64,000 nt of DNA from an uncultured bacterium (GCA_964614945.1 CAZTNW010000001.1:30573-94572); one strand, 5' to 3'; positions 5,848 through 61,762 are shown, counted from the stretch's first letter. Numbers and translations: made by a program. The notes: generated from the sequence alone by a model not told the origin.

Positions 5848-5920
5848 GGCTGAGAGGGATTAGTGCCGGTCCCAACCCATCGAACCTGAACTGGGTTATG
5901 CCAGCGTAGGGAAATAAATG
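5828..5920 (+). promoter_or_regulatory. TPP (THI-box) riboswitch aptamer
   Basis: The sequence GGGGUGCCC..GCUGAGAGG..ACCC..GAACCUGAACUGGGUUAUGCCAGCGUAGGGAA matches the THI-element consensus. It lies upstream of a thiamine transporter and a thiamine pyrophosphokinase. Confidence 0.8.
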
Positions 5921-5923
5921 GCG

Positions 5924-5951
5924 AGACGCTCCTATGCTGGGGGCGTTTTTC
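5924..5951 (+). terminator. riboswitch expression-platform intrinsic terminator
   Basis: A stem ACGCUCC/GGGGGCGU is followed by UUUUU and sits just before the SD GAGGAGG of thiT. Confidence 0.6.
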
Positions 5952-5969
5952 GTTGAGGAGGCAAAGATA

Positions 5970-6584
5970 ATGGATATTGGCACAGCAGGATGGCTCTCTT
6001 TTGGCGGAGCTTTAATCGGTGGAGCTCTTCTTATTCTTTTCCAGGTGAAGAAACTGACAACCAAGGATTGGGTTGAGGTTGGTGTGATGCTTGCCCTGGC
6101 CTTCGCCCTGAAATTCATTTCCAAGCAATTAATCCCCTCCTTCCGCATCTGGGCTCAAGGAGGATCGATCACCATTGCTTCCATGGTGCCCATCTTCTAC
6201 CTCTCCCTGAAGAGAGGTTGGGCGGTGGGAGCATTTGCTGGGGTGATCTTCGGCCTCTATGACTTTCTTCTCTCGCCCTATTTCTACCATCCAGCACAGT
6301 TTTTTCTTGACTACCCAATCGCTTTCGGCCTGCTGGGGATAACAGGGCTTTTTCAAAAGAATTTCGCTTTTGGTATCACCTTAGGGGGGCTGGCTCGTCT
6401 TTTCTCGCATTTCCTTTCCGGCATCATCTTTTTTGCAAGTTATGCTCCCGCCGGTTGGAATGCTTACTTGTACTCCCTAGCTTATAATAGCAGCTTCATG
6501 CTCCCGGAAATTCTTATTTCAGTATACGTTATGACCTTGCTGTGGCCTCGATTGAAGTGGGTTCAGGCTGGAAGCGGATCCTGA
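5970..6584 (+). CDS. thiT: ECF-type thiamine transporter S component (ThiT-like membrane protein)
   Basis: It is a polytopic membrane protein, and the ATG at 5970 follows GAGGAGG. It lies directly downstream of the TPP riboswitch and upstream of the TPK gene. Confidence 0.65.
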   Translation: MDIGTAGWLSFGGALIGGALLILFQVKKLTTKDWVEVGVMLALAFALKFISKQLIPSFRIWAQGGSITIASMVPIFYLSLKRGWAVGAFAGVIFGLYDFLLSPYFYHPAQFFLDYPIAFGLLGITGLFQKNFAFGITLGGLARLFSHFLSGIIFFASYAPAGWNAYLYSLAYNSSFMLPEILISVYVMTLLWPRLKWVQAGSGS

Positions 6585-14206: not shown

Positions 14207-14386
14207 ATTAAGACCTACTTAACCCCACCGTGCCGTGTGAGGGGGGGTGATGAACCTGCAACTCGCAGGTGGGTTTCCTAACCGAGCAGAGGGAGGGATA
14301 ATTCCCGTCAAGCTCTGGATCAGAATCCCTTTGTTTTTGTGTTGGCTCATACCTTTACCCTTCATCACCAACACCGCAGGGTTTTT

Positions 14387-19040: not shown

Positions 19041-19115
19041 TGGTGGAGACAGCGGGAGTTGAACCCGCAACCTCTTCCGTGCGAGGGAAGCGCTCTCCCT
19101 TTGAGCTATGTCCCC
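19041..19115 (-). tRNA. tRNA-Ala (anticodon CGC)
   Basis: The cloverleaf folds with a G3:U70 pair, an anticodon loop CUCGCAC, a T-arm GCGGG/UUCAACU/CCCGC and an encoded CCA. Confidence 0.85.
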
Positions 19116-36462: not shown

Positions 36463-38359
36463 AGATAATTCCCTCCTTCAGCGGATCAGCTCTCCCTGCG
36501 ACCTGAAGAAGCTTGACATCCCACAGCTCAAGGCGTTAGCCAAAGAGGTGCGAGAGAAAATTATCCGCCAGGTTGCTTTCGGCGGAGGCCACCTGTCTTC
36601 AAATTTAGGCACTATCGAGTTGACCCTGGCCCTCCACTATGTTTTTGACGCCCCTGAGGACCTGATTCTGTGGGATGTAGGCCATCAAACCTATACACAC
36701 AAATTGATTACGGGCAGAGAAGATCAATTTAGTTCGCTGCGACAGGACAACGGACTTTCAGGCTTTCCTTCGCGCGAGGAATCGGTTTTTGATGTCGCCA
36801 ATGTCGGCCACGCTTCCACATCATTGTCTCAAGCTCTGGGATTGCGTGCAGCACGGGATATCAGAGGAGGAAATCATAAAATAATTGCCGTCATGGGGGA
36901 CGGGGCACTTACCGGCGGGCTCGCCCTGGAGGCCCTCAACAATGCAGGACAGCTGCAGAAGGATTTAATCCTGATCCTCAATGATAACGAGCATTCTATC
37001 TCGCGCAATGTAGGAGCAATGGCCAGAAACCTGGCAAAACTACGCTCTTCCAGGCGTTACCGGGGAGCTAAACGGCTAGCCAAGAGTTTCCTGCATCGTT
37101 TCCCGCTCTTCGGACGGTGGATTATTCATCTCTTCGATAGGTTTAAGTTTGTCCTCAAGGCAATGGTCCTCCCTAGCATGCTGTTTGAAAGCTTCGGATT
37201 CTCTTACTTAGGTCCGATCGACGGACATAATCTGAAAGCTCTGATTGAGGTTATGAACCAGGCTAGAAATTTTGAGACTCCGGTGTTCCTCCATGTTATT
37301 ACCCGCAAGGGGATGGGGTATCCTCCCGCTGAGCGAAATCCGGTTAAATACCATTCCGCAAGCCCTTTCGATATCAAAAACGGCGAAGCGTTGAAGCCCG
37401 AATCGCCGACCTTTACAGACGTCACGCGCAGCACATTAGCCGATCTGGGGGGAAAGAGACCAGATTTGGTTTGCATCACAGCGGCCATGGCAGACGGAAC
37501 AGGACTCAACGAGTTCGCTCGTCTTTACCCCACTAGGTTTTTCGATGTGGGTATTGCCGAGGAACACGCGCTCAGCTTTGCCTCCGGTCTTTCCCTCGCA
37601 GGCATGAAACCGGTTGTAGCCATTTATTCAACATTTTTTCAAAGATCTTTCGATCAAATGCTTGAGGATATTTGCCTGCAGAACTTGCCGGTCCTTGTCC
37701 TTCTAGATCGAGCTGGCCTAGTGCCCGGAGACGGACCAACACATCAGGGAATTTATGATTTGAGCTTTTTGCGCATAATGCCGAATCTATCGATTATGGC
37801 TCCCTCTTGCGGCCAAGATCTCAGGAACATGATTTATACGGCCCTGGAGCAGGATGGCCCTGTGGCCATAAGATATCCAAAAGGTGAAATCCCGGAGGGG
37901 CACTCGCCTTCCGGCCCTTACAGTAAAATCGCTTGGGGCCGAGGCCAGCTGGTCAGGGAAGGAACAGATATGGCCTTTCTGGCTTTGGGGTCAATGGTGG
38001 AAGTTGCCAGGGAAGCTTCTTCTATTCTTAAGATGGCTGGAGTTGATGCCGCAATTTACGATCTGCGTTTTTTAAAACCGCTCGATCAAGAGCTGGTCTT
38101 CGCAGCCCACCGTCGCTTTCCCCACCTGGTGATCATGGAGGAGAATGTAGAATGGGGAGGATTGGGTTCCGCTATCTTGGAACTACTCAATATAAAAAGG
38201 CTATCCACCCAGAAGATCCAGTGCATTGGGATTGCTTCGACGCCAGGAGTGGGAAGCCGCTCTTTCCTTCTCAAGCGAGCGGGCTTAGCCGCCGATAGTG
38301 TAGTAGATCAGCTCTCAGGGATTTTAAAAAACCGGGAAGGAATAAAGGGACATGTTTAG
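36455..38359 (+). CDS. dxs: 1-deoxy-D-xylulose-5-phosphate synthase
   Basis: At 634 aa it has the TPP-binding GDG motif, the transketolase-like domains, and ispA-dxs synteny. Confidence 0.9.
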   Translation: MVKDNSLLQRISSPCDLKKLDIPQLKALAKEVREKIIRQVAFGGGHLSSNLGTIELTLALHYVFDAPEDLILWDVGHQTYTHKLITGREDQFSSLRQDNGLSGFPSREESVFDVANVGHASTSLSQALGLRAARDIRGGNHKIIAVMGDGALTGGLALEALNNAGQLQKDLILILNDNEHSISRNVGAMARNLAKLRSSRRYRGAKRLAKSFLHRFPLFGRWIIHLFDRFKFVLKAMVLPSMLFESFGFSYLGPIDGHNLKALIEVMNQARNFETPVFLHVITRKGMGYPPAERNPVKYHSASPFDIKNGEALKPESPTFTDVTRSTLADLGGKRPDLVCITAAMADGTGLNEFARLYPTRFFDVGIAEEHALSFASGLSLAGMKPVVAIYSTFFQRSFDQMLEDICLQNLPVLVLLDRAGLVPGDGPTHQGIYDLSFLRIMPNLSIMAPSCGQDLRNMIYTALEQDGPVAIRYPKGEIPEGHSPSGPYSKIAWGRGQLVREGTDMAFLALGSMVEVAREASSILKMAGVDAAIYDLRFLKPLDQELVFAAHRRFPHLVIMEENVEWGGLGSAILELLNIKRLSTQKIQCIGIASTPGVGSRSFLLKRAGLAADSVVDQLSGILKNREGIKGHV

Positions 38360-39179
38360 GGCAGTGGGCTTATTTCCTAACAATCGAAATTCGAAGGCTA
38401 TGGCCCTGGCCTTGGAACTTGGCCGGGTTTTTCAGAAAAAGGGCACCGAGCCCCTATTGCCTGAGGGAATTCCACAGAAAACTATTCCTGCCTGGAGGAC
38501 TTTTCCGGCCGTACGGCCGGATCTTGTCCTCAGCTTGGGCGGAGACGGCACTCTATTGCGCTGCGTGCACGAGGTTTTAGACCTCTGCCCAATTCTTGGC
38601 GTGAACCTCGGCAATCTCGGATTTCTTACAGCGTCCGATCAATCAAGAATTCTCGGGGACCTGGAGAACCTGCTTGAGGGAAAGTTCCGAATTGAAAGGA
38701 GACCCATTCTTTCAATTCAGGTCAACGGCTGCACTTATTTCGCCCTGAATGAGTGCGCGGTTGCCCAGAGGAGGGTAGGGCGGATGTTCGGGCTGCGCTT
38801 AACCATTAACGGAACGGAGCTGGGAGAACTGAGAGGGGATGGGGTTTTGGTGTCCACCTCAACCGGCTCCACTGCCTACGCTCTTGCTTGTGGTGGCCCG
38901 ATAGTGATACCGGAGATGAAGATAATGCTACTGTGTGCGATCTCGCCGCATAGCTTTTCTTCTCGCCCGTTGGTCCTCGCCGGGGAGGATCAAGTAGAAA
39001 TCCAGCTTCTTCAAGATCAAGAGGGGCTGTGTGTAATTGATGGGCAGGAAATGGTTTCCATCTCGTCAGCGGAAAGCATCTACCTGACTCTTTCGCCAAA
39101 AAATGCGGAACTTGTCTTTTTTGAAAGCGATTTCTTTGTAAAATTGATCCAGAAAAAATTTTCATGGGGCAATTATTGA
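38352..39179 (+). CDS. nadK: NAD kinase
   Basis: It has the GGDGTLL motif and the NADK fold. Confidence 0.85.
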   Translation: MFRAVGLFPNNRNSKAMALALELGRVFQKKGTEPLLPEGIPQKTIPAWRTFPAVRPDLVLSLGGDGTLLRCVHEVLDLCPILGVNLGNLGFLTASDQSRILGDLENLLEGKFRIERRPILSIQVNGCTYFALNECAVAQRRVGRMFGLRLTINGTELGELRGDGVLVSTSTGSTAYALACGGPIVIPEMKIMLLCAISPHSFSSRPLVLAGEDQVEIQLLQDQEGLCVIDGQEMVSISSAESIYLTLSPKNAELVFFESDFFVKLIQKKFSWGNY

Positions 39180-40834
39180 TTGAGACCATCGCCATCCACA
39201 ATCTGGCGATCGTAAAGAATCTGACCTTTGATTTGAGCAGAGGTCTCAACGTATTTACCGGTGAAACAGGGACGGGAAAGTCCCTGGTGGTGGATGCGAT
39301 ATCCTTCCTTCTGGGCGGAAGAAGCCAGGGCGAGTGGATAGGGTCAGGCGGAGAAGAGTTGAAGGTGGAGGCAAGCTTGAGCCTGGAAGATTCCCCACAG
39401 AGGGACGAGCTCAAGGAGGTAGGATTCGAGGAGCCCTTCCTTTATATTTCCCGCACTTTAAATCGAGAGGGACGAAGCAGGGCCAGGATCAATGGCAAAG
39501 GTGTGCCTGTAAGCTTTCTGCGAGACACTCTTGCTGGCCTTGTTCACCTTCATGGGCAGCAGGAGCATGAAGCACTGGCTTCCCCTCAATACCAACTGGA
39601 CGCCCTGGATCAATTTGCCGGAGTAGAAGCGCTCGAGCTTCGGATAAAAGCAGAGGGATTTTTGAGTGAAGGGAGGAGGTTGGAAAGAGAAAGGGTCCTG
39701 GCCGAAGAGCAACAGAGGGAGCGGGAAAGACAGCTCGACTTTCTGCGCTACGAGATTATGGAGATCGAGAATGCTCATTTTGCGGGAGAAAGGGAGGAAG
39801 AGGAGCTGCAGAAGAAGAGGGAATTCCTCCGCACACAACTGAAAGTGCAGCAGCATCTACAGCGGATCTCCGATCTACTCGAAGAAGGGCTGCCCAGGAT
39901 GGAAAAAGAAGCGAAGGGATTAGCCGAATTCTCTTTGCTGCATGAAAAATTGGCTGAACTCAGCTCGCGGCTGGCAAACGTAGGAGTGGAATTGAAGGAT
40001 CTGCAGTGGGAATTGAGATCATTTCTCCCTACACTGGAGGCTGAGCCAAACCAGTTGGATTCGATTGAAGAGAGACTCGATTCTATTTCACGTCTGAAAA
40101 GAAAATATGGCTCAACGATTCCTCTGATTCTCTCTTACTTGAGCACTGCTAAGGAAAAACTGGAGTTTCTCGGTCGCATTGAGCATGAGCTATCCGACCT
40201 TGAGGATCAACTGGCAAAAAATTGTGAGCAGTTAACTGGCTCGCTCTCAAGGCTGAGGGTTTTGAGGAGAAAAAAGGCCGGGGAACTCGAGGCTAAAGTA
40301 GTCAGAGGCTTGCAGGAGCTGGGCATCGCCCAGCCGTCATTTTCCATCCTTTACCATGAACTTCCCCAGGATAGTCTGCGCTCTTATGGACTCGACCGGG
40401 TAGAGTATCTTTTTTCCACTAACCCTGGCGAGGAATTGAAACCAATCGGAAAGGTAGCTTCAGGCGGAGAGCTCTCGCGCTTTATGTTGGTCTTAAAGAC
40501 CGCCCTGGCCTCGATTGTCAAAGCCTCCACAGTGGTCTTCGATGAGGTGGATGCCGGGATTGGCGGGATAGTGGGGGAGAGTCTCGCCCGGAAGCTAAGG
40601 CAGCTTTCCTGTTCTCATCAGGTCCTTTGTATAACTCATTTGCCGCAGATTGCAGCGCAGGCAGGTGCGCACTTCGTCGTTGAGAAGAAAACCGTCCGGG
40701 ACCGCACTTCCGTGAAATTGAGACGTGTTTCCGGGCAAGAGCGGGTCCTGGAAATGGCTCGCATGTTGGCTGGGAAAAAGGTTACTTCGGCTGTATTGGC
40801 GCATGCTCGAGAATTAGCGGAAGGGGGGAAATGA
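39164..40834 (+). CDS. recN: DNA repair protein RecN
   Basis: It is an SMC-like protein with an N-terminal Walker A GETGTGKS and long coiled coils, at 556 aa. Confidence 0.9.
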   Translation: MGQLLIETIAIHNLAIVKNLTFDLSRGLNVFTGETGTGKSLVVDAISFLLGGRSQGEWIGSGGEELKVEASLSLEDSPQRDELKEVGFEEPFLYISRTLNREGRSRARINGKGVPVSFLRDTLAGLVHLHGQQEHEALASPQYQLDALDQFAGVEALELRIKAEGFLSEGRRLERERVLAEEQQRERERQLDFLRYEIMEIENAHFAGEREEEELQKKREFLRTQLKVQQHLQRISDLLEEGLPRMEKEAKGLAEFSLLHEKLAELSSRLANVGVELKDLQWELRSFLPTLEAEPNQLDSIEERLDSISRLKRKYGSTIPLILSYLSTAKEKLEFLGRIEHELSDLEDQLAKNCEQLTGSLSRLRVLRRKKAGELEAKVVRGLQELGIAQPSFSILYHELPQDSLRSYGLDRVEYLFSTNPGEELKPIGKVASGGELSRFMLVLKTALASIVKASTVVFDEVDAGIGGIVGESLARKLRQLSCSHQVLCITHLPQIAAQAGAHFVVEKKTVRDRTSVKLRRVSGQERVLEMARMLAGKKVTSAVLAHARELAEGGK

Positions 40835-41883
40835 GAAAATTTCTTATTCTTGTAATCAACCCTGGTTCGACTTCAACTAAAGTTTCCCTTTTTCTGAATG
40901 ATCAGGCCTGGAATGAGTCCACGATTCATCATAAAGAAAGCAAATTGGAGATTCTCGAGAATCTGCCGGAAAGACTCAGGGACATACACAGCTGGCTTTC
41001 CCAAGGACTTAAGCCCCAGCTCGATGGGGTTGTAGCGCGGGGAGGATTGTTGAAGCCTATTTCCTCGGGCACCTACCGGGTAAACGAGGTGATGCTAAAT
41101 GACCTTCGTTTCCGCCCGCAAGCGCAGCACGCCTCTAACCTCGGCGCTTTCATTGCTAAGGAATTAGGGGAAGAGTTCCAGGTGCCGGCATTGATCGTAG
41201 ACCCTGTGTCGGTGGACGAATTTGAGCCACTTGCCCGTTATTCGGGATTGCCCGAACTTCCCCGCAGGGCCCTTTCACATGCCTTAAACATTAAGGCCGT
41301 GGGGAGGAAGGTGGCGCAGGAACTGGGCAAGTCCCTGAGTGAGTGCAATTTTGTCGTCGGGCATTTAGGGGGCGGAATTTCTGTTGTACCGCTTAGAGGC
41401 GGACGTATAATCGATGCGAATGATGCCAATCAGGGAGGGCCGTTCTCCCCGGAAAGAGCGGGTGCTCTTCCCGTCGTCGATTTAGTCCATCTTGCTTATT
41501 CTGGCAAATATTCGGAGAAAGAACTGGTCACGCGTATGGTCAAACGGGGCGGGCTGACCGCTTATCTCGGCACGAACGATGCTAAAGAGGTAGAAGCTCG
41601 AATTCGAGCGGGAGATCGAGAGGCGCAAGAAGTTTATGAGGCGATGGCCTATCAGGTCGCTAAAGAAATCGGAGCTATGGCTACAGTGCTCAAAGGAGAG
41701 TTGGATCGGATTATCCTTACCGGAGGTTTGGCCTTTTCCTCGCTGCTCGTCCCTCTGATTGAGGAGCGAGTTGCCTTTATAGCACCCCTGCAGATCATAC
41801 CGGGAGAGGGAGAGATGGAAGCCTTGGCTTTAGGAGCCCTGAGAGTTCTAACCGGAGAGGAGGAGGCCCAAGAATATGTATAG
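40831..41883 (+). CDS. buk: butyrate (short or branched-chain acyl) kinase
   Basis: It belongs to the ASKHA family with the N-terminus LVINPGSTSTKVSLF, at about 350 aa, and is adjacent to ptb. Confidence 0.8.
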   Translation: MRKFLILVINPGSTSTKVSLFLNDQAWNESTIHHKESKLEILENLPERLRDIHSWLSQGLKPQLDGVVARGGLLKPISSGTYRVNEVMLNDLRFRPQAQHASNLGAFIAKELGEEFQVPALIVDPVSVDEFEPLARYSGLPELPRRALSHALNIKAVGRKVAQELGKSLSECNFVVGHLGGGISVVPLRGGRIIDANDANQGGPFSPERAGALPVVDLVHLAYSGKYSEKELVTRMVKRGGLTAYLGTNDAKEVEARIRAGDREAQEVYEAMAYQVAKEIGAMATVLKGELDRIILTGGLAFSSLLVPLIEERVAFIAPLQIIPGEGEMEALALGALRVLTGEEEAQEYV

Positions 41884-42793
41884 CAAGTTGCAAGAAATCG
41901 CGCAAAGAGCGGCAGGAATCCCGCTGATGACCGCTGCCGTTCCCTGCCCGGAAGAAGCAGATACACTTCTGGGAATTGATCAAGCATTCAAATCCGGTTT
42001 GATTCAGCCCCATTTGTTCGGTGACGAATCGGCAGTAAAGAAATTAGCGAGGGAATCGGGAATTGTCTTAGACGAATACGAACTGCATCATTGCCTTAAC
42101 CAGGAAGAAAGCGCTCTTTCCGCTGTTCAGTTCTGTCGAGAGGGGAAGGGAGAGATACTGATTAAAGGTTTTTTGCCGACGCCGATCTTCCTGAAGGCTG
42201 TTCTGCACAAGGAAAGGGGCATTGGCACGGGATCTCTTCTCTCGCATATAGCTGTTTTTGAGGTTCCGACAATTCCTCGCCTGCTGTTTTTAACCGACGG
42301 GGGAATGGTAGTTGCGCCGACCCTGGCGCAAAAAATAGAGATACTGCAGAACGCCCTGGGGGTTTGTCATGCTCTGGGCATCAGGGAGCCGAAAGTCGCC
42401 ATTCTGGCCTCGGTTGAAACGGTCAGCCCTGAAATTCCCGCCACTTGTGACGCTGCAGTTATTACCGCCATGTGGCGGCGCAGGCAAATTAAGGGATGCA
42501 TCCTGGATGGTCCCCTGGCCCTGGATAATGCTTTATCCCCACAGGCTCTCAAGGAGAAGGGGATCGAGAGTCCAGTGGGAGGAAATGCAGACATTCTCCT
42601 CGTTCCGAATATTGAATCAGGTAATTTGCTGGGAAAATCGTTCATTCATGTGGCCGGAGGGGTGATGGCCGGAGTTGTGCAAGGAGCACGGGTCCCAATA
42701 GTCCTGGTCTCTCGGGTGGATCCGCCTGATTCGAAGCTTTTCTCCGTAGCCATCGCCGCCATGATTAGCTGGCAGGCCAAAGAGAGGGTCTGA
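41876..42793 (+). CDS. ptb: phosphate butyryltransferase / phosphotransacylase
   Basis: It is a PTA/PTB-family protein of 305 aa, adjacent to the acyl kinase. Confidence 0.8.
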   Translation: MYSKLQEIAQRAAGIPLMTAAVPCPEEADTLLGIDQAFKSGLIQPHLFGDESAVKKLARESGIVLDEYELHHCLNQEESALSAVQFCREGKGEILIKGFLPTPIFLKAVLHKERGIGTGSLLSHIAVFEVPTIPRLLFLTDGGMVVAPTLAQKIEILQNALGVCHALGIREPKVAILASVETVSPEIPATCDAAVITAMWRRRQIKGCILDGPLALDNALSPQALKEKGIESPVGGNADILLVPNIESGNLLGKSFIHVAGGVMAGVVQGARVPIVLVSRVDPPDSKLFSVAIAAMISWQAKERV

Positions 42794-42794
42794 G

Positions 42795-43508
42795 ATAAAG
42801 GAGCGACTCCCACTTAATCGTTGTCGGATTCTTATCATCAGCGGCCCTTCAGGTTCGGGGAAAAGCGAGATCAGCCTTAACCTTGCTCTTACCCTGAATA
42901 GCACCACTGAGGTAGCGTTGATCGACTTAGATATCGTTAAACCTCTTTTTCGCCTACGCAATCATCGAGCCCAGATTGATGAGTTTGGCCTGCGTCTAGT
43001 TTCACCCGGCGGAGAGTTGGACTCAGCCGATCTGCCAATTCTACCGCAGGAGGCGATCAGGTACCTTTCTTCCCCGCACAGGGCGGTTGTTGATCTGGGA
43101 GGGGAAGCAGCCGGGGCTCGCGTATTGAAGCAGTATCAAAATTTTCTCAAGGGAGGTGACGTCTGCCATTTCTTCGTAGTAAATCCCTTTCGTCCCTTTT
43201 CCCGGACAGCAGGAGAATTAAGAACTCAACTCAACGAGATTGAAAGGAGCAGTGGAGCGAGAATCGAGGGCTTGCTCTCCAATCCGCATTTGAAGGAGGA
43301 GACAACCCTGGAAATAATCCAACAAGGGCATCTCGTGGCCTTGGAGCTTTCTCAGGCTTTCAACTTGCCGATCATTTGCCTGTGCGTGAACGAGGTTTTA
43401 ACCGCTGAGGTCTCTGCGCTGATGGAGATTCCCATTTTGCCCATGAAGCTTTTTATCCAGCCTCCCTGGGTTGAGATGCCTTTAAATTGGAAGGAGGACC
43501 ATGAATAA
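42795..43508 (+). CDS. P-loop kinase-like protein (shikimate/gluconate-kinase-type fold); start codon unresolved
   Basis: The frame is open from 42765 to 43508. It carries Walker A IISGPSGSGKS, followed 17 residues later by ALIDLD. No ATG, GTG or TTG occurs in frame before the annotated TTG at 42918, which would cut off the P-loop. The only in-frame ATT, ATC or ATA codons are upstream of it. Confidence 0.45.
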   Translation: MKERLPLNRCRILIISGPSGSGKSEISLNLALTLNSTTEVALIDLDIVKPLFRLRNHRAQIDEFGLRLVSPGGELDSADLPILPQEAIRYLSSPHRAVVDLGGEAAGARVLKQYQNFLKGGDVCHFFVVNPFRPFSRTAGELRTQLNEIERSSGARIEGLLSNPHLKEETTLEIIQQGHLVALELSQAFNLPIICLCVNEVLTAEVSALMEIPILPMKLFIQPPWVEMPLNWKEDHE

Positions 43509-43737
43509 AGTAAATATTGAGGAGGATTTCTGCAAGGCCTGTGAACTCTGCGTGGCTGTTTGCCCGGTACACGTGCTGGCCCTTTCCAACCGCCTAAATT
43601 CTTTAGGCTACCACCCTGTGGAATTAGTAGACGAGGATGGCTGCATTTCCTGCACTTTTTGCGCCAGGATTTGTCCTGATGCCGCGATCGAGGTCTATCG
43701 CAAAAGCACGGGGCCGAGGCCGGAAAGGAATAAATAA
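43501..43737 (+). CDS. 2-oxoacid:ferredoxin oxidoreductase delta subunit (2x[4Fe-4S] ferredoxin)
   Basis: It has two CxxCxxCxxxCP motifs, at 78 aa. Confidence 0.8.
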   Translation: MNKVNIEEDFCKACELCVAVCPVHVLALSNRLNSLGYHPVELVDEDGCISCTFCARICPDAAIEVYRKSTGPRPERNK

Positions 43738-44801
43738 TGAGCGAGAAGATCCTGATGAAGGGCGCTGAAGCTTGCGCTGAGGCTGCAATCAAAGCAGGCT
43801 GCAGGTTTTTCTTCGGTTACCCGATTACCCCGCAAAATGAGGTAGCTTCTTACATGTCGCGTCGCCTGCCGGAGGTCGGAGGGGTATACCTGCAGGGGGA
43901 GAGTGAAGTAGCTTCAATAAATATGGTATTAGGCGCGGCAGCTGCTGGTGCCAGAGCTATGACCTCTTCGTCTTCTCCAGGCATATCGCTGATGCAAGAA
44001 GGGATTTCTTATATGGTGGGGTGCCAGCTCCCCGCCGTGATAGTTAACTTTGTCAGAGGAGGCCCTGGCCTGGGAGGGATCGGCCCCTCTCAATCCGATT
44101 ACTTTCAGGCGGTTAAAGGAGGAGGACACGGAGATTACAACCTGGTGGTCCTCGCCCCCTCTTCTATCCAGGAGCTGATGGACTTGATGAAGGACGCCTT
44201 CGACATCGCCGATCGCTATCGCAATCCCACCATGGTTTTAGCTGACGGGATAATCGCTCAGATGATGGAGGCGGTCTCCTTCAATTTTGAGATTGATCCG
44301 CCCGCTTTGCCTCCGAAGTCCTGGGCGGTCACCGGGGCCAAAGACAGGAAGAAGAACATCATCAACTCTCTTGAATTGGACCCAGAGAAATTGGAAGCGA
44401 ACAACTGGGAGCTGCAGAAGAAATTTGCCCTCGCTAAAGTGAAAGAGGTTCGCTGGGAAGAATATCTGCTGCAGGATGCCAGCCTGGTTTTGGTTTGTTT
44501 TGGAACGGTTGCCCGGATTGCCAAAAAAGCCATCGATAATTTGCGCGAGCGCGGCATGAATGTGGGGATGATTCGTCCCATCACTCTCTGGCCTTATCCG
44601 ACAGCCCCTTTTGAGAGAGCGATCCCTCATGCCGAGCAGTTTCTTGTTCTGGAAATGAATGCCGGGCAGATGATCGAGGATGTGCGCTTAGCTGTCCAGG
44701 GTGCGAGACCTGTTCACTTTCGAGGCAAGCCAGGCGGGACGATCTTTAATCCATTAGAAGTGGAACGATTTATACTGGAGGAAGCGGTAAAGGAGGCATG
44801 A
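43737..44801 (+). CDS. 2-oxoacid:ferredoxin oxidoreductase alpha subunit
   Basis: It has the POR/VOR/KOR alpha-subunit domains, at 354 aa. Confidence 0.85.
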   Translation: MSEKILMKGAEACAEAAIKAGCRFFFGYPITPQNEVASYMSRRLPEVGGVYLQGESEVASINMVLGAAAAGARAMTSSSSPGISLMQEGISYMVGCQLPAVIVNFVRGGPGLGGIGPSQSDYFQAVKGGGHGDYNLVVLAPSSIQELMDLMKDAFDIADRYRNPTMVLADGIIAQMMEAVSFNFEIDPPALPPKSWAVTGAKDRKKNIINSLELDPEKLEANNWELQKKFALAKVKEVRWEEYLLQDASLVLVCFGTVARIAKKAIDNLRERGMNVGMIRPITLWPYPTAPFERAIPHAEQFLVLEMNAGQMIEDVRLAVQGARPVHFRGKPGGTIFNPLEVERFILEEAVKEA

Positions 44802-45556
44802 TGGAAGCACCAGTTTATACCCCTTTGTATCAACGACCGAAGTCGCTGTCGCTTGTGCACAATAGTTACTGCCCAGGATGCCATCACGGGATTGTACACA
44901 AACTTCTGGCGGAGGTAATTGACGAGCTGGGTATCCAGGAGCGAACCGTGATAATCTCTCCAGTTGGCTGTTCGGTTCGGGCCTACGATTTCTTTGAGCT
45001 GGATTCTGTACAGGCTGCTCATGGTAGAGCACCCGCTGTAGCAACCGGCATCAAGCGAGTCAATCCCCAGACCATTGTCATCACCTACCAGGGCGACGGC
45101 GACCTGGCGGCAATAGGTACCGCAGAAATTATTCATGCGGCAAATCGGGGTGAGAGAATTACCACTATTTTTATAAACAACACCAACTTTGGCATGACTG
45201 GTGGCCAGATGGCACCCACAACGCTGATTGGGCAAAAGACGGAAACCACTCCTTACGGCCGTGACCCTTTGCGCGACGGCTATCCGATTCGGGTAGCCGA
45301 GCTGATTGCCGGATTGACCGGTCCTGCTTATGTAGCCAGGATGGCGGTTTTTAACCCTGCGCAAGCCGTCAAGACCAGAAATTCCTTAAAGAAAGCGCTC
45401 CAAGCACAGATCGAAGGGAAAGGCTTCAGCTTTGTGGAAGTCCTCTCCGCTTGCCCGACCAACTGGGGTCTCTCTCCTATCCAGGCAATCAAGTGGCTCG
45501 AGGAGAATATGGTTTCCTATTATCCCCTGGGTGAATTTGTGGGAGGGCAGAAATGA
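44798..45556 (+). CDS. 2-oxoacid:ferredoxin oxidoreductase beta subunit (TPP-binding)
   Basis: It has the TPP-binding GDG motif and the Cys ligands of the proximal cluster (CPGCHHG). Confidence 0.85.
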   Translation: MMEAPVYTPLYQRPKSLSLVHNSYCPGCHHGIVHKLLAEVIDELGIQERTVIISPVGCSVRAYDFFELDSVQAAHGRAPAVATGIKRVNPQTIVITYQGDGDLAAIGTAEIIHAANRGERITTIFINNTNFGMTGGQMAPTTLIGQKTETTPYGRDPLRDGYPIRVAELIAGLTGPAYVARMAVFNPAQAVKTRNSLKKALQAQIEGKGFSFVEVLSACPTNWGLSPIQAIKWLEENMVSYYPLGEFVGGQK

Positions 45557-46104
45557 CGCACGAGGTGATTTGCGCCGGCTTTGGCGGTCAGGGCGTAATG
45601 CTTATGGGACAATTATTGGCTTATGCCGCGACGATGGAGGGGAAAGAGGCCACTTGGTATCCTTCCTATGGCCCCGAGATGCGTGGAGGCACAGCTAACT
45701 GCCAGGTCGTTATCTCCGATCAGCCCATCAATTCTCCCGTCCTGTCCCTTCCCCAGTCCGTCATCGTGCTCAATCGGCCTTCATTCGAAAAGTTTGCCTC
45801 AACTGTCGCCCCAGGTGGTCTATTGCTCGTGAACCTCTCCCTTGTCGATATAAAATCCAAAAGGACTGACTTGGAAATTCACGAAATCCCAGCCACGGAA
45901 ATTGCCCAGCAGATCGGCAGCACTTTAGTGGCCAATATCATTCTGCTTGGAGCATATTTGGAGAGGATGAAATCGGTGAGATTCGAATCAGTAGAGGCGG
46001 TTTTACAAAAGACAATGAGCGGCAGGAGAGAAAAATTCATTCCCCTCAATATGGAGGCTCTTCATGCCGGAAGAGAGTTTATCCGGAAAAGCACGTCCGA
46101 ATAG
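45553..46104 (+). CDS. 2-oxoacid:ferredoxin oxidoreductase gamma subunit
   Basis: It has the gamma-subunit fold with GFGGQGV, at 183 aa. Confidence 0.8.
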   Translation: MTHEVICAGFGGQGVMLMGQLLAYAATMEGKEATWYPSYGPEMRGGTANCQVVISDQPINSPVLSLPQSVIVLNRPSFEKFASTVAPGGLLLVNLSLVDIKSKRTDLEIHEIPATEIAQQIGSTLVANIILLGAYLERMKSVRFESVEAVLQKTMSGRREKFIPLNMEALHAGREFIRKSTSE

Positions 46105-46152
46105 TCTTTTCACCTGAATCTTCCGATGGAAGGAAATAGGAGGAAGCAGAAG

Positions 46153-47235
46153 ATGGTTTCTTCAGCGCGCCTTTTGGAAGAGTTCTTGCAAGCAATCCAG
46201 ATCCCTTCAGTTTCAGGAGCGGAAGAAAGCTTCGCCCGGTATGTCTGGGAAAAACTTAGACAATTAGGACTGCAAGCGGGTCGCGATGAAGCGGGGAACG
46301 TCTTCGCCGTCCTTGAAGGAGACTCAGCTCGGCGCCCGATTCTTTTCAATGCTCACCTGGATACCGTGCCCACTGGCCCCGTTCATTGCCGCCTGGACGG
46401 TGATTGGATAACGACTGAGGGGAACTCGATCCTGGCGGCGGACGACAAATCTTCGATCAGCGTAATTTTAGAAACCCTGCGAACTTTAGAGGAAAATAGG
46501 GATCCCCACGGCAGAATAGAGATCCTCTTGACCGTGGAAGAGGAAACCGAGATGAGAGGAGCGAAGAACTTCGACCTGGGCCGTTCAATGGCCGAATGTT
46601 TCTTCGTACTGGACTATACGGGAGCGGTAGGAGGTTTTGTGGCCAGTGCCCCATTCGCCAATTCCCTCCGTTTTATTTTCCAAGGCAAAGCAGCTCACGC
46701 AGGGGCTGAACCTGAAAAAGGCATCTCGGCGATCCTTGCCCAGTCCCGGGCTATCAGTAAAATGTCCCTCGGCCGCATCGATCATGAGACCACATCCAAC
46801 ATCGGCACGATGAAGGGAGGAAGCGCAGACAATGTAGTCCCGGATTATGCAGAGATGACCGGCGAAGTGCGCAGCCGGAATAGGGACAAACTAGCAAAGG
46901 TGACGGAATTAATGCGTGTTACGGCAGAGAGAGAAGCCGCCAGGCTGGGCGCCAGTGTAGAGGTCATTGCCCGTGAGGATTACCAGGGATACTGCATTGA
47001 GGATGACGATCCTTCTCTTATCTGGTTAAAGAAGGCGGCCGCTGATTTGTTCCTCGAATTGAAGCCTTGCCACGCGGGGGGAGCTTCCGACGCAAATGTG
47101 TACCGGGCAAGAGGGAAGAGCTCAATCGTGCTTGGCTCCGGTTTTTATTCCCCCCACACCTTTGAAGAAAAAGTATCAGTTTCTGAAATGCTGAAGCTTC
47201 AACAGCTTCTTCACGCTATAATCAGTCATGCCTAA
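46153..47235 (+). CDS. M20 family metallopeptidase (peptidase T-like)
   Basis: It has M20 metal-ligand motifs (NAHLDTVP, DDKSSI, EEETEM). The ATG at 46153 follows AGGAGG. Confidence 0.7.
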   Translation: MVSSARLLEEFLQAIQIPSVSGAEESFARYVWEKLRQLGLQAGRDEAGNVFAVLEGDSARRPILFNAHLDTVPTGPVHCRLDGDWITTEGNSILAADDKSSISVILETLRTLEENRDPHGRIEILLTVEEETEMRGAKNFDLGRSMAECFFVLDYTGAVGGFVASAPFANSLRFIFQGKAAHAGAEPEKGISAILAQSRAISKMSLGRIDHETTSNIGTMKGGSADNVVPDYAEMTGEVRSRNRDKLAKVTELMRVTAEREAARLGASVEVIAREDYQGYCIEDDDPSLIWLKKAAADLFLELKPCHAGGASDANVYRARGKSSIVLGSGFYSPHTFEEKVSVSEMLKLQQLLHAIISHA

Positions 47236-47758
47236 AACGGAGAAGAAATTACAACAGAGCATTGTCTATCGGGGAAATTTTTTGACTGTGGAAAAAGTCG
47301 AGATATTGTTCGCATCCGGGCTACGCACAGAAAGAGAGATTATCCATCACCCCGGAGCTGTCTCCATCCTCGCCCTGAATGAAGAAGGTGACGTTCTTCT
47401 TGTCAGGCAGTTCCGCTCTGCCATAGATGAAGAACTCTGGGAGATTCCTGCGGGAAAGCTGGAAAAGGAGGAGAGCCCCCTCAAATCAGCGCAAAGGGAA
47501 CTCCTGGAAGAAACCGGACACGAAGCCAAGAATTGGGTTCACCTTCATTCTTTTTACCCTTCCCCCGGTTATTCGGACGAGATCATTCATTTATTCCTGG
47601 CGCAGGAATTGAGGCAGAAGAAGCACAAAGCTCAACCCGATGAGGAGATTGAGTGGAAATTTTTCCCCCGTCAGGAACTGGATAATTTTTTGAAACCTGG
47701 CCAGGTGAGGGATGGCAAGACCCTTCTTGCACTCCATTACCTGAAATTGCATGTTTGA
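47228..47758 (+). CDS. NUDIX hydrolase (ADP-ribose pyrophosphatase-like)
   Basis: It has the Nudix box GKLEKEESPLKSAQRELLEETG. Confidence 0.8.
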   Translation: MPKTEKKLQQSIVYRGNFLTVEKVEILFASGLRTEREIIHHPGAVSILALNEEGDVLLVRQFRSAIDEELWEIPAGKLEKEESPLKSAQRELLEETGHEAKNWVHLHSFYPSPGYSDEIIHLFLAQELRQKKHKAQPDEEIEWKFFPRQELDNFLKPGQVRDGKTLLALHYLKLHV

Positions 47759-48938
47759 ACGTGTGATCCTGATCGTCTTGGATGGAGTAGGTGTGGGCGC
47801 TTTACCCGATGCATCTCAGTACAACGATACAGGCGCTAATACCCTAGTGAATGCTTTGCGAGCGGCGAAGAACTATTCGCTCCCTTTTCTGAGTCGGGCT
47901 GGTTTGGGTTTAATTATCGATGAGGGTCTTCTCCCTCAGGAAGAGAGACCTCTGGCTTCCTGGGGAACCATGCGGGAAGCTTCTGTTGGGAAAGACACAA
48001 TAATCGGTCATTGGGAGATGATGGGCCTGAAAACTGAACATCCTTTTCCCACATTCCCTGGCGGATTTCCTGCGGATTGGGTCTCCTGTTTCGAGCAGGC
48101 GATCGAGAGAAAAACTCTGGGGAATCTCGCTATTTCAGGGACAGAAATCCTGAAGCTCTTCGGGCAAGAACATATGCGCAGCGGTAGGCCGATCATTTAT
48201 ACCTCTGCGGATTCCGTCCTGCAAATCGCCTGCCACGAAGAAATTGTGCCCCTCGCTGAACTCTATCGCTTCTGCACGATTGCCCGCTCTCTTCTTCAGG
48301 GAGATCTGGCCGTTCTAAGGGTCATTGCCCGGCCTTTTCAGGGAAGTGAGGGGGTTTTTATCCGAACCGGAAACCGCAGAGACTTTACCCTATCCCCGCC
48401 AGGGTTGACTGTTTTAGACTTACTCTTTCAGGCTGGCTTGAAGGTCGTGGCTCTTGGGAAAATTGCGGATGTTTTTTCCGGCAGAGGTATCACTGTAGCC
48501 GAGCACACTCCCTTCAACCGGGAAACGATGGATGTGACAAGAAAATGGTTGAGATCAGAGAGCAGAGCCTTCATTTTCGTGAACCTGGGGGATTTCGATA
48601 CCCTCTGGGGACATCGCCGTCTTCCCCGGGAGTTTGTACGCTGCCTGGAGCGAGCAGATTCCTTCCTGGAAGAGATATGGGAAGGCCTTACCCCCGAAGA
48701 TTTACTGATTGTCACTGCAGATCACGGTAATGATCCCACGATGACCAGGCATAGTGATCACACGCGAGAGGAGGTGCCATTAATGATTTTCTGGCGAGGA
48801 AAAGTTGGCAGGCCACTGGGCCAAAGAGAGAGCTTCCTCGATATCGGAGAGACCATTGTGACCGCCTTTGGTCTTCAGGAGACTGTCGGCGGGAAAGGAT
48901 TGCTTCCCCTTTTGACAGGCAAACAACCTATTAGGTAG
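47751..48938 (+). CDS. deoB: phosphopentomutase
   Basis: The N-terminus reads MFERVILIVLDGVGVG and it belongs to the alkaline-phosphatase superfamily. Confidence 0.9.
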   Translation: MFERVILIVLDGVGVGALPDASQYNDTGANTLVNALRAAKNYSLPFLSRAGLGLIIDEGLLPQEERPLASWGTMREASVGKDTIIGHWEMMGLKTEHPFPTFPGGFPADWVSCFEQAIERKTLGNLAISGTEILKLFGQEHMRSGRPIIYTSADSVLQIACHEEIVPLAELYRFCTIARSLLQGDLAVLRVIARPFQGSEGVFIRTGNRRDFTLSPPGLTVLDLLFQAGLKVVALGKIADVFSGRGITVAEHTPFNRETMDVTRKWLRSESRAFIFVNLGDFDTLWGHRRLPREFVRCLERADSFLEEIWEGLTPEDLLIVTADHGNDPTMTRHSDHTREEVPLMIFWRGKVGRPLGQRESFLDIGETIVTAFGLQETVGGKGLLPLLTGKQPIR

Positions 48939-48947
48939 TATCCTTAA

Positions 48948-49832
48948 TTGATTATGTGGCACAAGAGGATCGACCTATTGAAATCCGGAAGGACCTTTGT
49001 CCTTATAGCTTTATCCGCACTCCTCTTCCTCTCTTTCCAGCTCTCAGCCAAAGGCCATAACGTGAGTTCGCAGGAATTGGCTAGGGTTGTGCTCACGGTG
49101 CGAACGGCTAGTAAAGAAATATCATTCAATGCTATTAAGGGCGTTACTTTAGAGAAAGCTCTGAACGATCGTGGTTTTGCTCTCGATGAGGAGGACATAC
49201 TCGATGCCCCCAGGAACCTTACTCTGGAAGGAGATAAAACAATCCGCTTGATAGAGGTGGAAGAGGAGATGATAAAGGAGCAGGAGGCGACCCCCTTCGC
49301 ACGAAAGTTCCTGCCTGACCTTTCTTTAGGATTGGGCAAAAGGTCATCTCTGCAGCTTGGTCGGTTAGGAACGATTGAGAAGACTTACCTGCTTCGTCGT
49401 GAGGATGGAAAAATCCTCTCTAAGAAGCTTATCGGCGAGAAGGTGCTGGCCGAGCCTGTCCCTCAGATTGAGTGTGTAGGAGTGATGATCTCGTCCCCCG
49501 AGGAGGCAATGGCAGCTTCTCGTGATTATCCGGCTTCATCGTCCGAGGACTATTTGCTGATGGAAGCCACAGCCTATTGCCCTCTCTCTTCTGAGACGGA
49601 TGGAAACCCCTGGGCTACGTCGGTGGGGCTCCGATCCGGTTATGGAATCGTAGCAGTTGACCCCACAGTGATCCCCTATTTCACCCCCCTTTACATCGAG
49701 GGTTATGGCTACGCGATTGCCGGGGACACGGGAGGGGCGATCAGGGGGGATCGCATTGACCTTTTTTTCTACAGCTGGGAGGAGACAAGTATTTTCGGTA
49801 GACGGCTGGTTAAAGTTTGGATCCTGGATTAA
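48948..49832 (+). CDS. 3D-domain cell-wall-associated protein (YabE/YuiC-like)
   Basis: It has an N-terminal TM helix and a C-terminal 3D domain with conserved Asp residues (AVDPTVIPYFT...AGDTGGAIRGDRIDLFF). Confidence 0.65.
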   Translation: MIMWHKRIDLLKSGRTFVLIALSALLFLSFQLSAKGHNVSSQELARVVLTVRTASKEISFNAIKGVTLEKALNDRGFALDEEDILDAPRNLTLEGDKTIRLIEVEEEMIKEQEATPFARKFLPDLSLGLGKRSSLQLGRLGTIEKTYLLRREDGKILSKKLIGEKVLAEPVPQIECVGVMISSPEEAMAASRDYPASSSEDYLLMEATAYCPLSSETDGNPWATSVGLRSGYGIVAVDPTVIPYFTPLYIEGYGYAIAGDTGGAIRGDRIDLFFYSWEETSIFGRRLVKVWILD

Positions 49833-52120: not shown

Positions 52121-52196
52121 GGGCGGATAGCTCAGCGGTAAGAGCGCCTGCCTTACAAGCAGGAAGCCGCAGGTTCAAATCCTGCTCCGCCCACCA
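52121..52196 (+). tRNA. tRNA-Val (anticodon TAC)
   Basis: The cloverleaf has an acceptor GGGCGGA/UCCGCCC, an anticodon loop CUUACAA, a T-loop UUCAAAU and an encoded CCA. Confidence 0.85.
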
Positions 52197-60529: not shown

Positions 60530-60606
60530 GGGGTCGTGGTGTAGCGGTCTAACATGCAGGCCTGTCACGCCTGAGATCGCGGGTTCAATTCCCGTCGACC
60601 CCGCCA
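60530..60606 (+). tRNA. tRNA-Asp (GTC)
   Basis: The cloverleaf has an anticodon loop CUGUCAC, an acceptor GGGGUCG/CGACCCC and an encoded CCA. Confidence 0.85.
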
Positions 60607-60613
60607 CTTAAGC

Positions 60614-60689
60614 GCCGAGGTAGCTCAGTTGGTAGAGCAGTGGACTGAAAATCCTCGTGTCGGCAGTTCGATTCTGCCCCTCGGCACCA
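60614..60689 (+). tRNA. tRNA-Phe (GAA)
   Basis: The anticodon loop is CUGAAAA and the T-loop is UUCGAUU. The anticodon stem has one U-U mismatch. CCA is encoded. Confidence 0.8.
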
Positions 60690-60820
60690 TCTTTCCCTCA
60701 GGCCAAGCACCTCTATCCTGTTCATTATTGACCGGCTCTGAGCATTTCCTTAGAATAGGCTTGAGCGTCTCCCCCGCTGGACTGATTGTGTAAGTTCTCC
60801 AAGATGAAGGGGCATTTTGA

Positions 60821-60896
60821 GCGGGAATAGCTCAGTCGGTAGAGCATCAGCTTCCCAAGCTGAGGGTCGCGGGTTCGAGTCCCGTTTCCCGCTCCA
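60821..60896 (+). tRNA. tRNA-Gly (CCC)
   Basis: The anticodon loop is UUCCCAA, the acceptor is GCGGGAA/UUCCCGC and CCA is encoded. Confidence 0.85.
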
Positions 60897-60904
60897 AAGA
60901 GAGA

Positions 60905-60978
60905 GGCGACATGGCCAAGTGGCAAGGCAAGGGTCTGCAAAACCCTCACCCCCGGTTCGAATCCGGGTGTCGCCTCCA
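60905..60978 (+). tRNA. tRNA-Cys (GCA)
   Basis: The anticodon loop is CUGCAAA, the acceptor is GGCGACA/UGUCGCC and CCA is encoded. Confidence 0.85.
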
Positions 60979-61004
60979 TCCTTTCGGAAAGAAGGACAGC
61001 AGAC

Positions 61005-61580
61005 ATGCTTTCGTGGGACGTGATCTTTCAGCTTATCCTTTTGGCCTTGTTCCTCGTTCTTACCGTCGGGAAAACCTTCTATTTGAGGTGGGCCAAGCAG
61101 GTCAACGCGATTGTCTTGGGGCGAAGCGCAAGGGGTTCGGTAGAGATCCTAATTTTGGCCACTCTTATCTGGGTGGTTGTTCTGCTCAATCTTTCCGCCG
61201 GCTTTGGCCGAAAGGTTTCTCCAATGGCCGGGAACTATCCCCGTGGAGCTTACCCTGGTCCTGTTCGGCTTTGCCTTTTTTGGAAGCCCTGATTCAATTG
61301 GAAACTTGTGGAGGCTTGGCATTGATGAGAAATACCCGGGGAAACTTGTGACAAAAGGAATTTATGCCTTTACGCGCAACCCCATCTATCTTTTTTTTCA
61401 TCTTTATTTCCTGGGCACTTTCTTCTTGAGAGATTCCGCTATTACCTGTTATTTTTCTCGATCATGGCCCTTTTACTTCATTTAGAGATTGTGCGGGAGG
61501 AAAAATATCTCCTCAGAGTCCACGGGATCATTATGCTAAATATTGCAAGAAGACCGGTAGTACTGGACCTGGAGTATTAA
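61005..61580 (+). pseudogene. isoprenylcysteine carboxyl methyltransferase (ICMT/PEMT) family membrane methyltransferase disrupted by multiple frameshifts
   Basis: N-terminal TM helices lie in frame A (61005-61230). The family signature LVTKGIYAFTRNPIYLFFHLYFLG lies in frame B. The C-terminal EEKYLL and HYAKYCKKTG motifs lie in two further frames. Confidence 0.55.
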
Positions 61581-61664
61581 TTCACCCCACTCTCTCGGCT
61601 AAATCAAGCCTTCCTCCTGAGTCAATAGACAGGAAAATAGGAAACCCTTAAAATTCCAAGCAAA

Positions 61665-61748
61665 GCCGGGGTGGCGGAACAGGCAGACGCAGCGGACTTA
61701 AAATCCGCTTCCCGCGAGGGAGTACCGGTTCGATTCCGGTCCCCGGCA
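61665..61748 (+). tRNA. tRNA-Leu (TAA), class II with a long variable arm
   Basis: The anticodon loop is CUUAAAA, the variable arm is long, and the acceptor is GCCGGGG/CCCCGGC. CCA is not encoded. Confidence 0.85.
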
Positions 61749-61762
61749 CTTTCGCTTGAAAC

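Follow-up and report, generated by a model that had tools for sequence, protein, structure and literature searches.

A 64,000-nucleotide (nt) stretch of DNA from an uncultured bacterium (GCA_964614945.1 CAZTNW010000001.1:30573-94572), hereafter called the window, carries an operon in which a gene for a P-loop NTPase, here named X, sits between ptb, which encodes phosphate butyryltransferase, and the genes for a four-subunit 2-oxoacid:ferredoxin oxidoreductase. X is a correctly sequenced gene under selection, and its start is non-canonical and conserved. We propose that X is translated from the ATA codon at 42795-42797, one base past the ptb stop codon, a reading to which we assign a probability of roughly 0.6.

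The X frame (frame 0) opens at 42765, immediately after a TGA at 42762-42764 and downstream of a second in-frame stop, TAG 42747-49. From its opening, this frame reads LAGRPKRGSEIKERLPLNRCRILIISGPSGSGKSE..., and between 42765 and 42917 it contains no in-frame ATG, GTG, or TTG. The first canonical codon in the frame is the TTG at 42918, which encodes Leu42 in a numbering that begins at ATA and is found 25 codons beyond the first glycine of the Walker A motif (42843). An earlier note on this DNA was therefore right that the frame has no canonical start ahead of the P-loop and that initiation at TTG 42918 would delete the P-loop; gene calls and family matches also agree with the operon context of butyrate kinase (buk), ptb, and oxidoreductase genes that it described. 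The chance of a 26-codon stretch without a canonical start is about 0.25, and so such a stretch is not rare by itself. It is notable here because a conserved, selected gene must begin within it.

One conceivable explanation is a canonical start masked by an indel introduced in sequencing or assembly, and an ATG at 42761, in the ptb frame, would indeed join the X frame if one base were removed. The same junction, however, is present and 100% identical in the Logan assembly of run ERR6222542 (L001), and it recurs in the assemblies L037 and L038, from two further runs, with 1 nt of difference in 6.6 kb; the NCBI contig and the Logan assemblies of three other runs agree in this sequence. A first metagenome scan for close relatives was empty, and a second scan and a genome scan returned only sequences with ≤52% identity; the additional sublineages came from cluster members. 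Zero indels separate the window from two diverged sublineages, L002/L003 (79% at the protein level) and L034-36 (76%), over the region that runs from ptb into and through the P-loop, and both sublineages are devoid of canonical starts between the end of ptb and the P-loop. In these sublineages, ATG 42761 is replaced by CTC, and the codon-position pattern is that of ptb-only coding up to 42791. Because the junction is the same in assemblies of other samples and shows no indels relative to the diverged sublineages, these sequence comparisons exclude an indel as the cause of the missing start, and the probability that a canonical start is hidden in this way is negligible.

The substitution pattern between the window and L002 reveals both selection on X and the point at which its coding begins. 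The ratio of nonsynonymous to synonymous substitution rates (dN/dS), estimated by the Nei-Gojobori method (NG86), is 0.088 for X as a whole, 0.136 for the P-loop segment that ends at TTG 42918, and 0.05 for positions 42792-42842. Of the 22 differences upstream of 42791, 16 affect ptb codon position 3, which is X-frame position 2, while from 42794 on, 11 of 15 differences are at X-frame position 3. Synonymous examples past the ptb stop include GAG/GAA twice, CTC/CTT, CCA/CCC, and TGT/TGC. Because the substitution periodicity switches at the ptb stop, coding in the X frame begins there, neither inside ptb nor at TTG 42918. Moreover, a relative-rate test against 13 outgroup proteins gave similar numbers of derived changes for the two branches, 16 for the window and 13 for L002 (p=0.71), and the window protein retains every family-invariant residue. 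Judged by these patterns, X is under strong purifying selection, P-loop included, and shows no sign of decay into a pseudogene.

The same data bear on the idea of a dead or truncated gene in this lineage, in which X would be a recent start-less pseudogene or would yield only the 196-residue product of TTG 42918, which has no P-loop. Public gene calls do start at this TTG, which has an SD-like (Shine-Dalgarno-like) score of -7.0, and at the position of the window's TAG, L002 and L034 retain a TTG that lies within ptb, in frame with X, 32 codons ahead of the P-loop. Neither form of this idea agrees well with the low dN/dS of the P-loop segment and of 42792-42842, with the similar rates on the two branches, or with the retention of all invariant residues. 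The upstream TTG of L002 and L034 has no SD, and the stretch from it to the ptb stop is free of frame-0 constraint, its differences falling on frame-0 position 2. Also, X residues 1-41, which are missing from the TTG 42918 product, include ILIISGPSGSGK, and an NTPase without Walker A would be inactive. We consider a dead or truncated gene highly improbable.

Within the stretch where X must begin, ATA 42795 is the only in-frame near-cognate codon (ATN or NTG) between the ptb stop and a conserved Leu-Pro motif. It is invariant across the three sublineages, and ATA is the rarest isoleucine codon in the genes of the window (16%). A Leu/Phe-Pro motif just before strand 1 is common to homologues of ~50% identity (RLP, 42807-42812, in the window), and therefore the N terminus of X lies upstream of this motif. 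An SD-like element, GAGAGGG in the window and GAAGGGG in the other sublineages, precedes ATA with a spacer of 6 nt. Its duplex with the anti-SD sequence CACCUCCUUU scores -8.5 kcal/mol in the window, -8.4 kcal/mol in L002, and -11.0 kcal/mol in L034, with pairing that ends at -7. Random window positions score -8 kcal/mol or lower in only 8% of cases, and the genome makes clear use of GGAGG-type SDs. The earlier note had offered non-canonical initiation, reinitiation coupled to the ptb stop, and a sequencing indel as options, and it had proposed a comparison of the start region with orthologues. In that comparison, all three sublineages are without a canonical start past the ptb stop. The first two options gain support and fit together, given an ATA that lies 1 nt past TGA, is invariant in the three sublineages, and has a well-spaced SD-like element; the third is refuted by the assemblies of other samples, the indel-free relatives at 76 to 79% identity, and the dN/dS of 0.088.

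A perfect AAGGAG near the start had also been reported. The motif is present, one base downstream of where it had been placed (42798-42803, not 42797-42802). It was considered as an SD and rejected, as no near-cognate codon lies 5 to 10 nt downstream of it in any frame that stays open. AAGGAG reads AAGGAA in both L002 and L034, a synonymous third-position change, and is most likely simply codons 2 and 3 of X (Lys-Glu), not a working SD.

Initiation could instead occur at ATT 42828 (or at ATC 42834/42837), giving (M)LIISGPSGSGKS..., with only 5 residues ahead of the P-loop glycine. The ATT is invariant in the three sublineages, some relatives have comparably short N termini (e.g., MKRVVILAGPSG), and AUU is the best documented non-canonical start in bacteria, being used by infC (PMC5499595). 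Still, nothing SD-like lies upstream of the ATT (+0.7 kcal/mol in the window and -1.6 kcal/mol in L002 and L034), and duplexes for the ATT and ATC codons together range from +0.7 to -3.3 kcal/mol, i.e., no SD. The ATT follows the ptb stop by 34 nt, a long distance for reinitiation, and the ATC codons are farther (≥34 nt for all three). The 11 codons from ATA to ATT show coding-type substitutions, with a proportion of synonymous differences (pS) of 0.70 versus a proportion of nonsynonymous differences (pN) of 0.22, and they hold the Leu-Pro motif common to the ~50% homologues. A start at ATT or ATC is, in our judgment, unlikely.

Several points weigh against initiation at ATA. One ATA conserved in three sublineages, two of which are close to each other, is weak evidence alone, and the periodicity between ATA and ATT is drawn from 11 differences, 7 of them at position 3 (binomial p ~0.04). 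The SD-like element is of moderate strength only and is part of the ptb coding sequence, such that its conservation may merely reflect ptb codons; the anti-SD sequence used for scoring is the assumed canonical form, with the 16S rRNA gene lying outside the window. Furthermore, AUA is a poor start codon in Escherichia coli, and initiation factor 3 (IF3) tolerates some third-base mismatches and excludes weak ones (PMC10158994).

Published work also describes how such a start can operate. In E. coli, AUA, AUC, AUU, and CUG initiate at ~1-2% (0.1-3%) of the level of AUG (bioRxiv 10.1101/063800). In vitro, an AUA mRNA behaved like its AUG counterpart in an optimized initiation region (PMC5499595). 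Stop-start overlaps and very short spacers have been shown experimentally to couple translation by termination-reinitiation (PMC6728339; PMC10666635), and reinitiation still requires initiator transfer RNA (tRNA) and IF2 and is lowered by IF3 overproduction (PMC2268962). For X, we infer both the use of ATA as the actual start codon and the dependence of its initiation on ptb translation. Ribosomes finishing ptb, or 30S subunits held by the SD-like GAGAGGG, would start again at ATA with initiator tRNA to make a 237-residue protein, (M)KERLPLNRCRILIISGPSGSGKS..., and the weak start would keep X low relative to the surrounding enzymes.

The proposed start has partial parallels in two kinds of known systems. 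First, as in E. coli infC and pcnB, which use AUU, an essential domain of X lies downstream of a stretch without AUG, GUG, or UUG, the near-cognate codon differs from AUG at the third position and is conserved among relatives, and a low initiation efficiency is expected. Unlike these genes, the codon proposed for X is AUA, and it lies within an operon, 1 nt past an upstream stop, rather than in a free-standing initiation region; also, there is no evidence of IF3 autoregulation for X. Second, X resembles termination-reinitiation systems of the ATGA and TGATG types (PMC6728339; PMC10666635) in that the start would be a few nucleotides from the stop with an SD inside the upstream gene, relatives have TTGA or GTGA overlaps at the same junction, and the whole operon is packed in this way. 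Unlike in those systems, the putative X start neither overlaps the stop nor is canonical, and the coupling is one that we propose.

Because the X frame is +1 relative to ptb, a programmed frameshift like that of prfB, which encodes RF2, could remove the need for a start codon altogether: GTC_TGA_G at the ptb stop would be read GTC-t-GAG, yielding a Ptb-X fusion. As in prfB, the site of the proposed shift is a UGA stop closely preceded by a G-rich SD-like run, and frame-0 periodicity begins exactly at the stop. The P-site codon, however, is GTC, GTT, or GTG across the sublineages, so that no slippery codon is conserved, and UCU/UGU re-pairing would be poor. The spacing is also wrong, as the SD-like run extends to the first base of the P-site codon, whereas in prfB the SD lies 3 nt upstream of that codon. 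No stimulatory RNA structure was found at the junction (z = -0.12), and Rfam gave no match in the region. Finally, all other homologues are stand-alone proteins encoded by separate genes with their own starts; the ~540-amino-acid (aa) size expected of Ptb-X is absent among the homologues listed, in which the long proteins (667-681 aa) carry a Mur-ligase/FolC module. A frameshift of this kind appears quite improbable. Reassignment of TGA was considered too and rejected: the Ptb C terminus ends where those of its homologues end, and TGA is the commonest stop in the genes of the window.

Comparison with more distant relatives, drawn from metagenome-assembled genomes (MAGs) of Caldisericota, Coprothermobacterota, and Thermodesulfobiota, suggests how the junction arose. 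In relatives of the Coprothermobacterota/Thermodesulfobiota type, the ptb stop and the X start share bases in a TTGA or GTGA, for example, TTG AAA CGC (MKR...) or TTG AGC CAA TTC GAT CTC CCG (MSQFDLP...); in other relatives, a spacer of ~40-55 nt is followed by a separate ATG or GTG start. The window lineage keeps an NTGA at the ptb stop (CTGA, TTGA, or GTGA; 42790-42798 in the window), out of frame with X, and the relic NTG opens only a 2-codon mini-ORF (open reading frame), NTG-AGA/AAA-TAA. This vestigial overlap probably has no function, its N being the wobble position of the final ptb codon. Initiation at the mini-ORF (CTG/TTG/GTG-AGA/AAA-TAA, frame 1) followed by a -1 shift was likewise rejected, as the NTG begins with the ptb wobble base and reads CTG in the window, and slippery heptamers are not conserved. 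In the history that we envisage, a small indel just after the ancestral overlapping NTGA start would have shifted the frame, and ATA, the next near-cognate codon in the X frame, would have taken over while staying beside the stop.

Public N termini are wrong for X, for which the gene call (P0001) gives 196 aa from TTG 42918 without the P-loop, and for its closest relatives, which are annotated with 209 aa or with 252 aa from a TTG inside ptb. The P-loop is lost in two of these three annotated versions, and therefore family searches and function prediction fail. More broadly, gene callers disagree on the starts of this family, placing them at a TTG 45 nt inside ptb (252 aa) or at a post-P-loop TTG (209 or 196 aa). 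Other calls start with MIVAG or MVLAG, 4 residues before the P-loop, where the TTGA/GTGA overlap start is more likely. The disputed starts are at L002:149 and L034:2872, and the proteins concerned are P0001, P0002, P0118, P0004, and P0016.

X is a divergent SIMIBI-class NTPase of the CbiA/MinD/ParA type, an assignment based on Pfam, structural matches, profile matches, and the pattern of invariant residues. Pfam places the window protein in CbiA (CobQ/CobB/MinD/ParA; PF01656; E=4e-7), as it does 71 of 108 homologues. An AlphaFold2 (AF2) model built from the 108 homologues has a predicted local distance difference test (pLDDT) score of 90.8, and Foldseek matched it in the PDB to the GTPase domains of SRP54, FtsY, and FlhF, to ATPase-type HypB (Mrp/MinD family), and to ArsA/Get3, with template modeling (TM) scores of ~0.5. 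In a profile search of PDB sequences, ArsA, MinD, FleN, and Mrp match only the region of the P-loop and strand 2 (residues 9-50). Residues invariant in the 108 homologues include G20/G22/K23, Asp44/Asp46 after strand 2, Phe52, Asp100/Gly102/Gly103, Gly107, Asn130, and Arg133. The Asp-rich switch I after strand 2 and the DxxG Walker B that characterize SIMIBI proteins are thus both present, in agreement with the model and with the Foldseek and CbiA matches, and we take the Asp-Leu-Asp of IDLDIVKP to resemble the DxD motif of MinD, Soj, and Mrp.

X shares with SIMIBI NTPases of the MinD/ParA/Mrp/ArsA type the fold, Walker A, a DxD-type switch I, a DxGG Walker B, and a length of ~230 aa. It differs from MinD and ParA in its Walker A, GPSGSGKS, where the family pattern (G-P/x-S/Y-G-S-G-K-S/T) has no lysine at the signature position of the deviant KGGxGK[ST]. 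Furthermore, X has no solved close relative, and its genomic partner is a VOR-type oxidoreductase. Unlike the Fe-S carriers Mrp/NBP35/ApbC and the CooC-type metallochaperones, X has no conserved CxxC or CxC motif, and no cysteine is invariant or nearly invariant in the 108 homologues. The shikimate or gluconate kinase-like fold suggested in the earlier note is not supported. Such kinases do share a GxxGxGK[ST]-type P-loop with X, but X has the DxGG Walker B and SIMIBI strand order in place of a LID-type kinase architecture. Pfam gave no shikimate (SKI) or gluconate kinase match for the window protein or its homologues, no kinase of either type is among the top 50 Foldseek matches listed, and the match to gluconate kinase (1knq) covers residues 6-35 only (E=0.014).

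Two further observations concern the divergence of X. The protein evolves much faster than its operon neighbors, having ~50% identity at loci (L004-L026) where VorA/VorB have 72-79% and Buk has 62-75%. Residue 75 of the window protein is Leu, while Trp occupies this position in the 13 outgroups and in the protein of the L002 sublineage (P0002).

Table 1. Features of the ptb-X junction and its surroundings, in window coordinates
Feature	Coordinates	Strand	Remarks
buk (butyrate kinase)	40831..41883	+	
ptb (phosphate butyryltransferase, 305 aa)	41876..42793	+	PF01515; NCBIfam phosphate butyryltransferase; stop TGA 42791-42793
SD-like GAGAGGG	42782..42788	+	Within last ptb codons, 6 nt 5' of ATA
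Proposed start codon ATA	42795..42797	+	1 nt past ptb TGA
Proposed full coding sequence of P-loop NTPase X	42795..43508	+	237 codons + TAA; 8-nt overlap with next gene
AAGGAG	42798..42803	+	Most likely codons 2-3 (Lys-Glu) of X
Leu-Pro motif (RLP)	42807-42812	+	
ATT, alternative near-cognate start	42828..42830	+	Less likely
Walker A GPSGSGKS	42843..42866	+	
TTG chosen by public gene calls	42918..42920	+	196-aa product P0001; P-loop removed
Switch-I-like Asp-Leu-Asp within IDLDIVKP	42924..42932	+	Family-invariant
Walker B DLGG	43092..43103	+	D100, G102, G103 invariant
Four-subunit 2-oxoacid:ferredoxin oxidoreductase genes	43501..46104	+	
Oxidoreductase subunit delta	43501-43737	+	
Oxidoreductase subunit alpha	43737-44801	+	VorB-type
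Oxidoreductase subunit beta	44798-45556	+	
Oxidoreductase subunit gamma	45553-46104	+	

Along with buk, recN and nadK lie upstream of the junction (Table 1), and the junctions between 12 consecutive operon genes measure -16 to +21 nt. The co-directional run comprises at least 12 genes (window 38352-49832), among them nadK, recN, buk, ptb, X, vorDABG, an M20/M28-type peptidase gene, and a NUDIX hydrolase gene. The order nadK-recN-buk-ptb-X-vor-peptidase-NUDIX is kept in relatives with ~50% X identity (L004 and L006). Elsewhere, the window contains a thiamine pyrophosphate (TPP) riboswitch at 5828-5924 (+; Rfam RF00059; 63.1 bits), just 5' of an ORF at 5934-6584, and a 6S RNA at 14218-14385 (-; Rfam RF00013; 66.6 bits). 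Its tRNAs include a cluster at 60530-61749 (+) of Asp-GTC, Phe-GAA, Gly-CCC, Cys-GCA, and Leu-TAA, as well as tRNA-Val-TAC at 52121 and tRNA-Ala-CGC at 19041 (-); neither initiator tRNA nor tRNA-Ile2 is found within the window.

The family to which X belongs is large and, at the ~30 loci described below, linked to the oxidoreductase. With a cutoff of E≤1e-30, an exhaustive profile search identified 1,194 clusters (50% identity). Wherever a homologous locus extends far enough downstream, X is directly upstream of vorDABG-type genes, with or without buk and ptb; these ~30 loci, at 30-100% identity, come from MAGs of Caldisericota, Coprothermobacterota, Thermodesulfobiota, Synergistaceae, deltaproteobacteria, and Thermoanaerobacteraceae. 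Four clusters of ~670-aa proteins (P0259, P0269, P0285, and P0332) combine a FolC-type Mur ligase (Mur_ligase_M, Mur_ligase_C, and FOL3_C) with a C-terminal X-family domain (profile E ~1e-75), and this FolC-X fusion may be a Rosetta-stone hint to the role of the domain. The one fusion locus looked up (P0259; L042:2836-4848, also L043:2173-4185) has a valS-folC-SPOR-rimP-nusA-infB context with no oxidoreductase nearby. Because the fusion locus sits in this valS-folC context without an oxidoreductase, the X family is not exclusively linked to the oxidoreductase.

From synteny only, and with low confidence, we suggest that X may be a nucleotide-dependent accessory factor, acting in assembly or regulation, for the VOR-type enzyme. 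Limited literature searches returned no description of a dedicated P-loop NTPase partner of 2-oxoacid:ferredoxin oxidoreductases. A bolder combination, that AUA works only via reinitiation after ptb and that X defines an uncharacterized SIMIBI NTPase family (~1,200 clusters) of dedicated VOR accessory factors for assembly, cofactor loading, or regulation, is one that we hold as a doubtful but tenable idea; if it is true, operon flux would strictly set X output, at a low ratio.

Non-canonical starts are already a known phenomenon, and the case itself is fairly ordinary. Its value lies in being a clean natural case, in which a near-cognate AUA start would have persisted beside an upstream stop codon despite substantial divergence (pS 0.67), and this stop-start junction could be used for testing how far termination-reinitiation relaxes the choice of start codon. 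We posit that the more useful lead, however, is the protein rather than its start codon: a sizeable, uncharacterized NTPase family that lies directly upstream of VOR-type genes across several phyla and is a candidate accessory factor for these enzymes.

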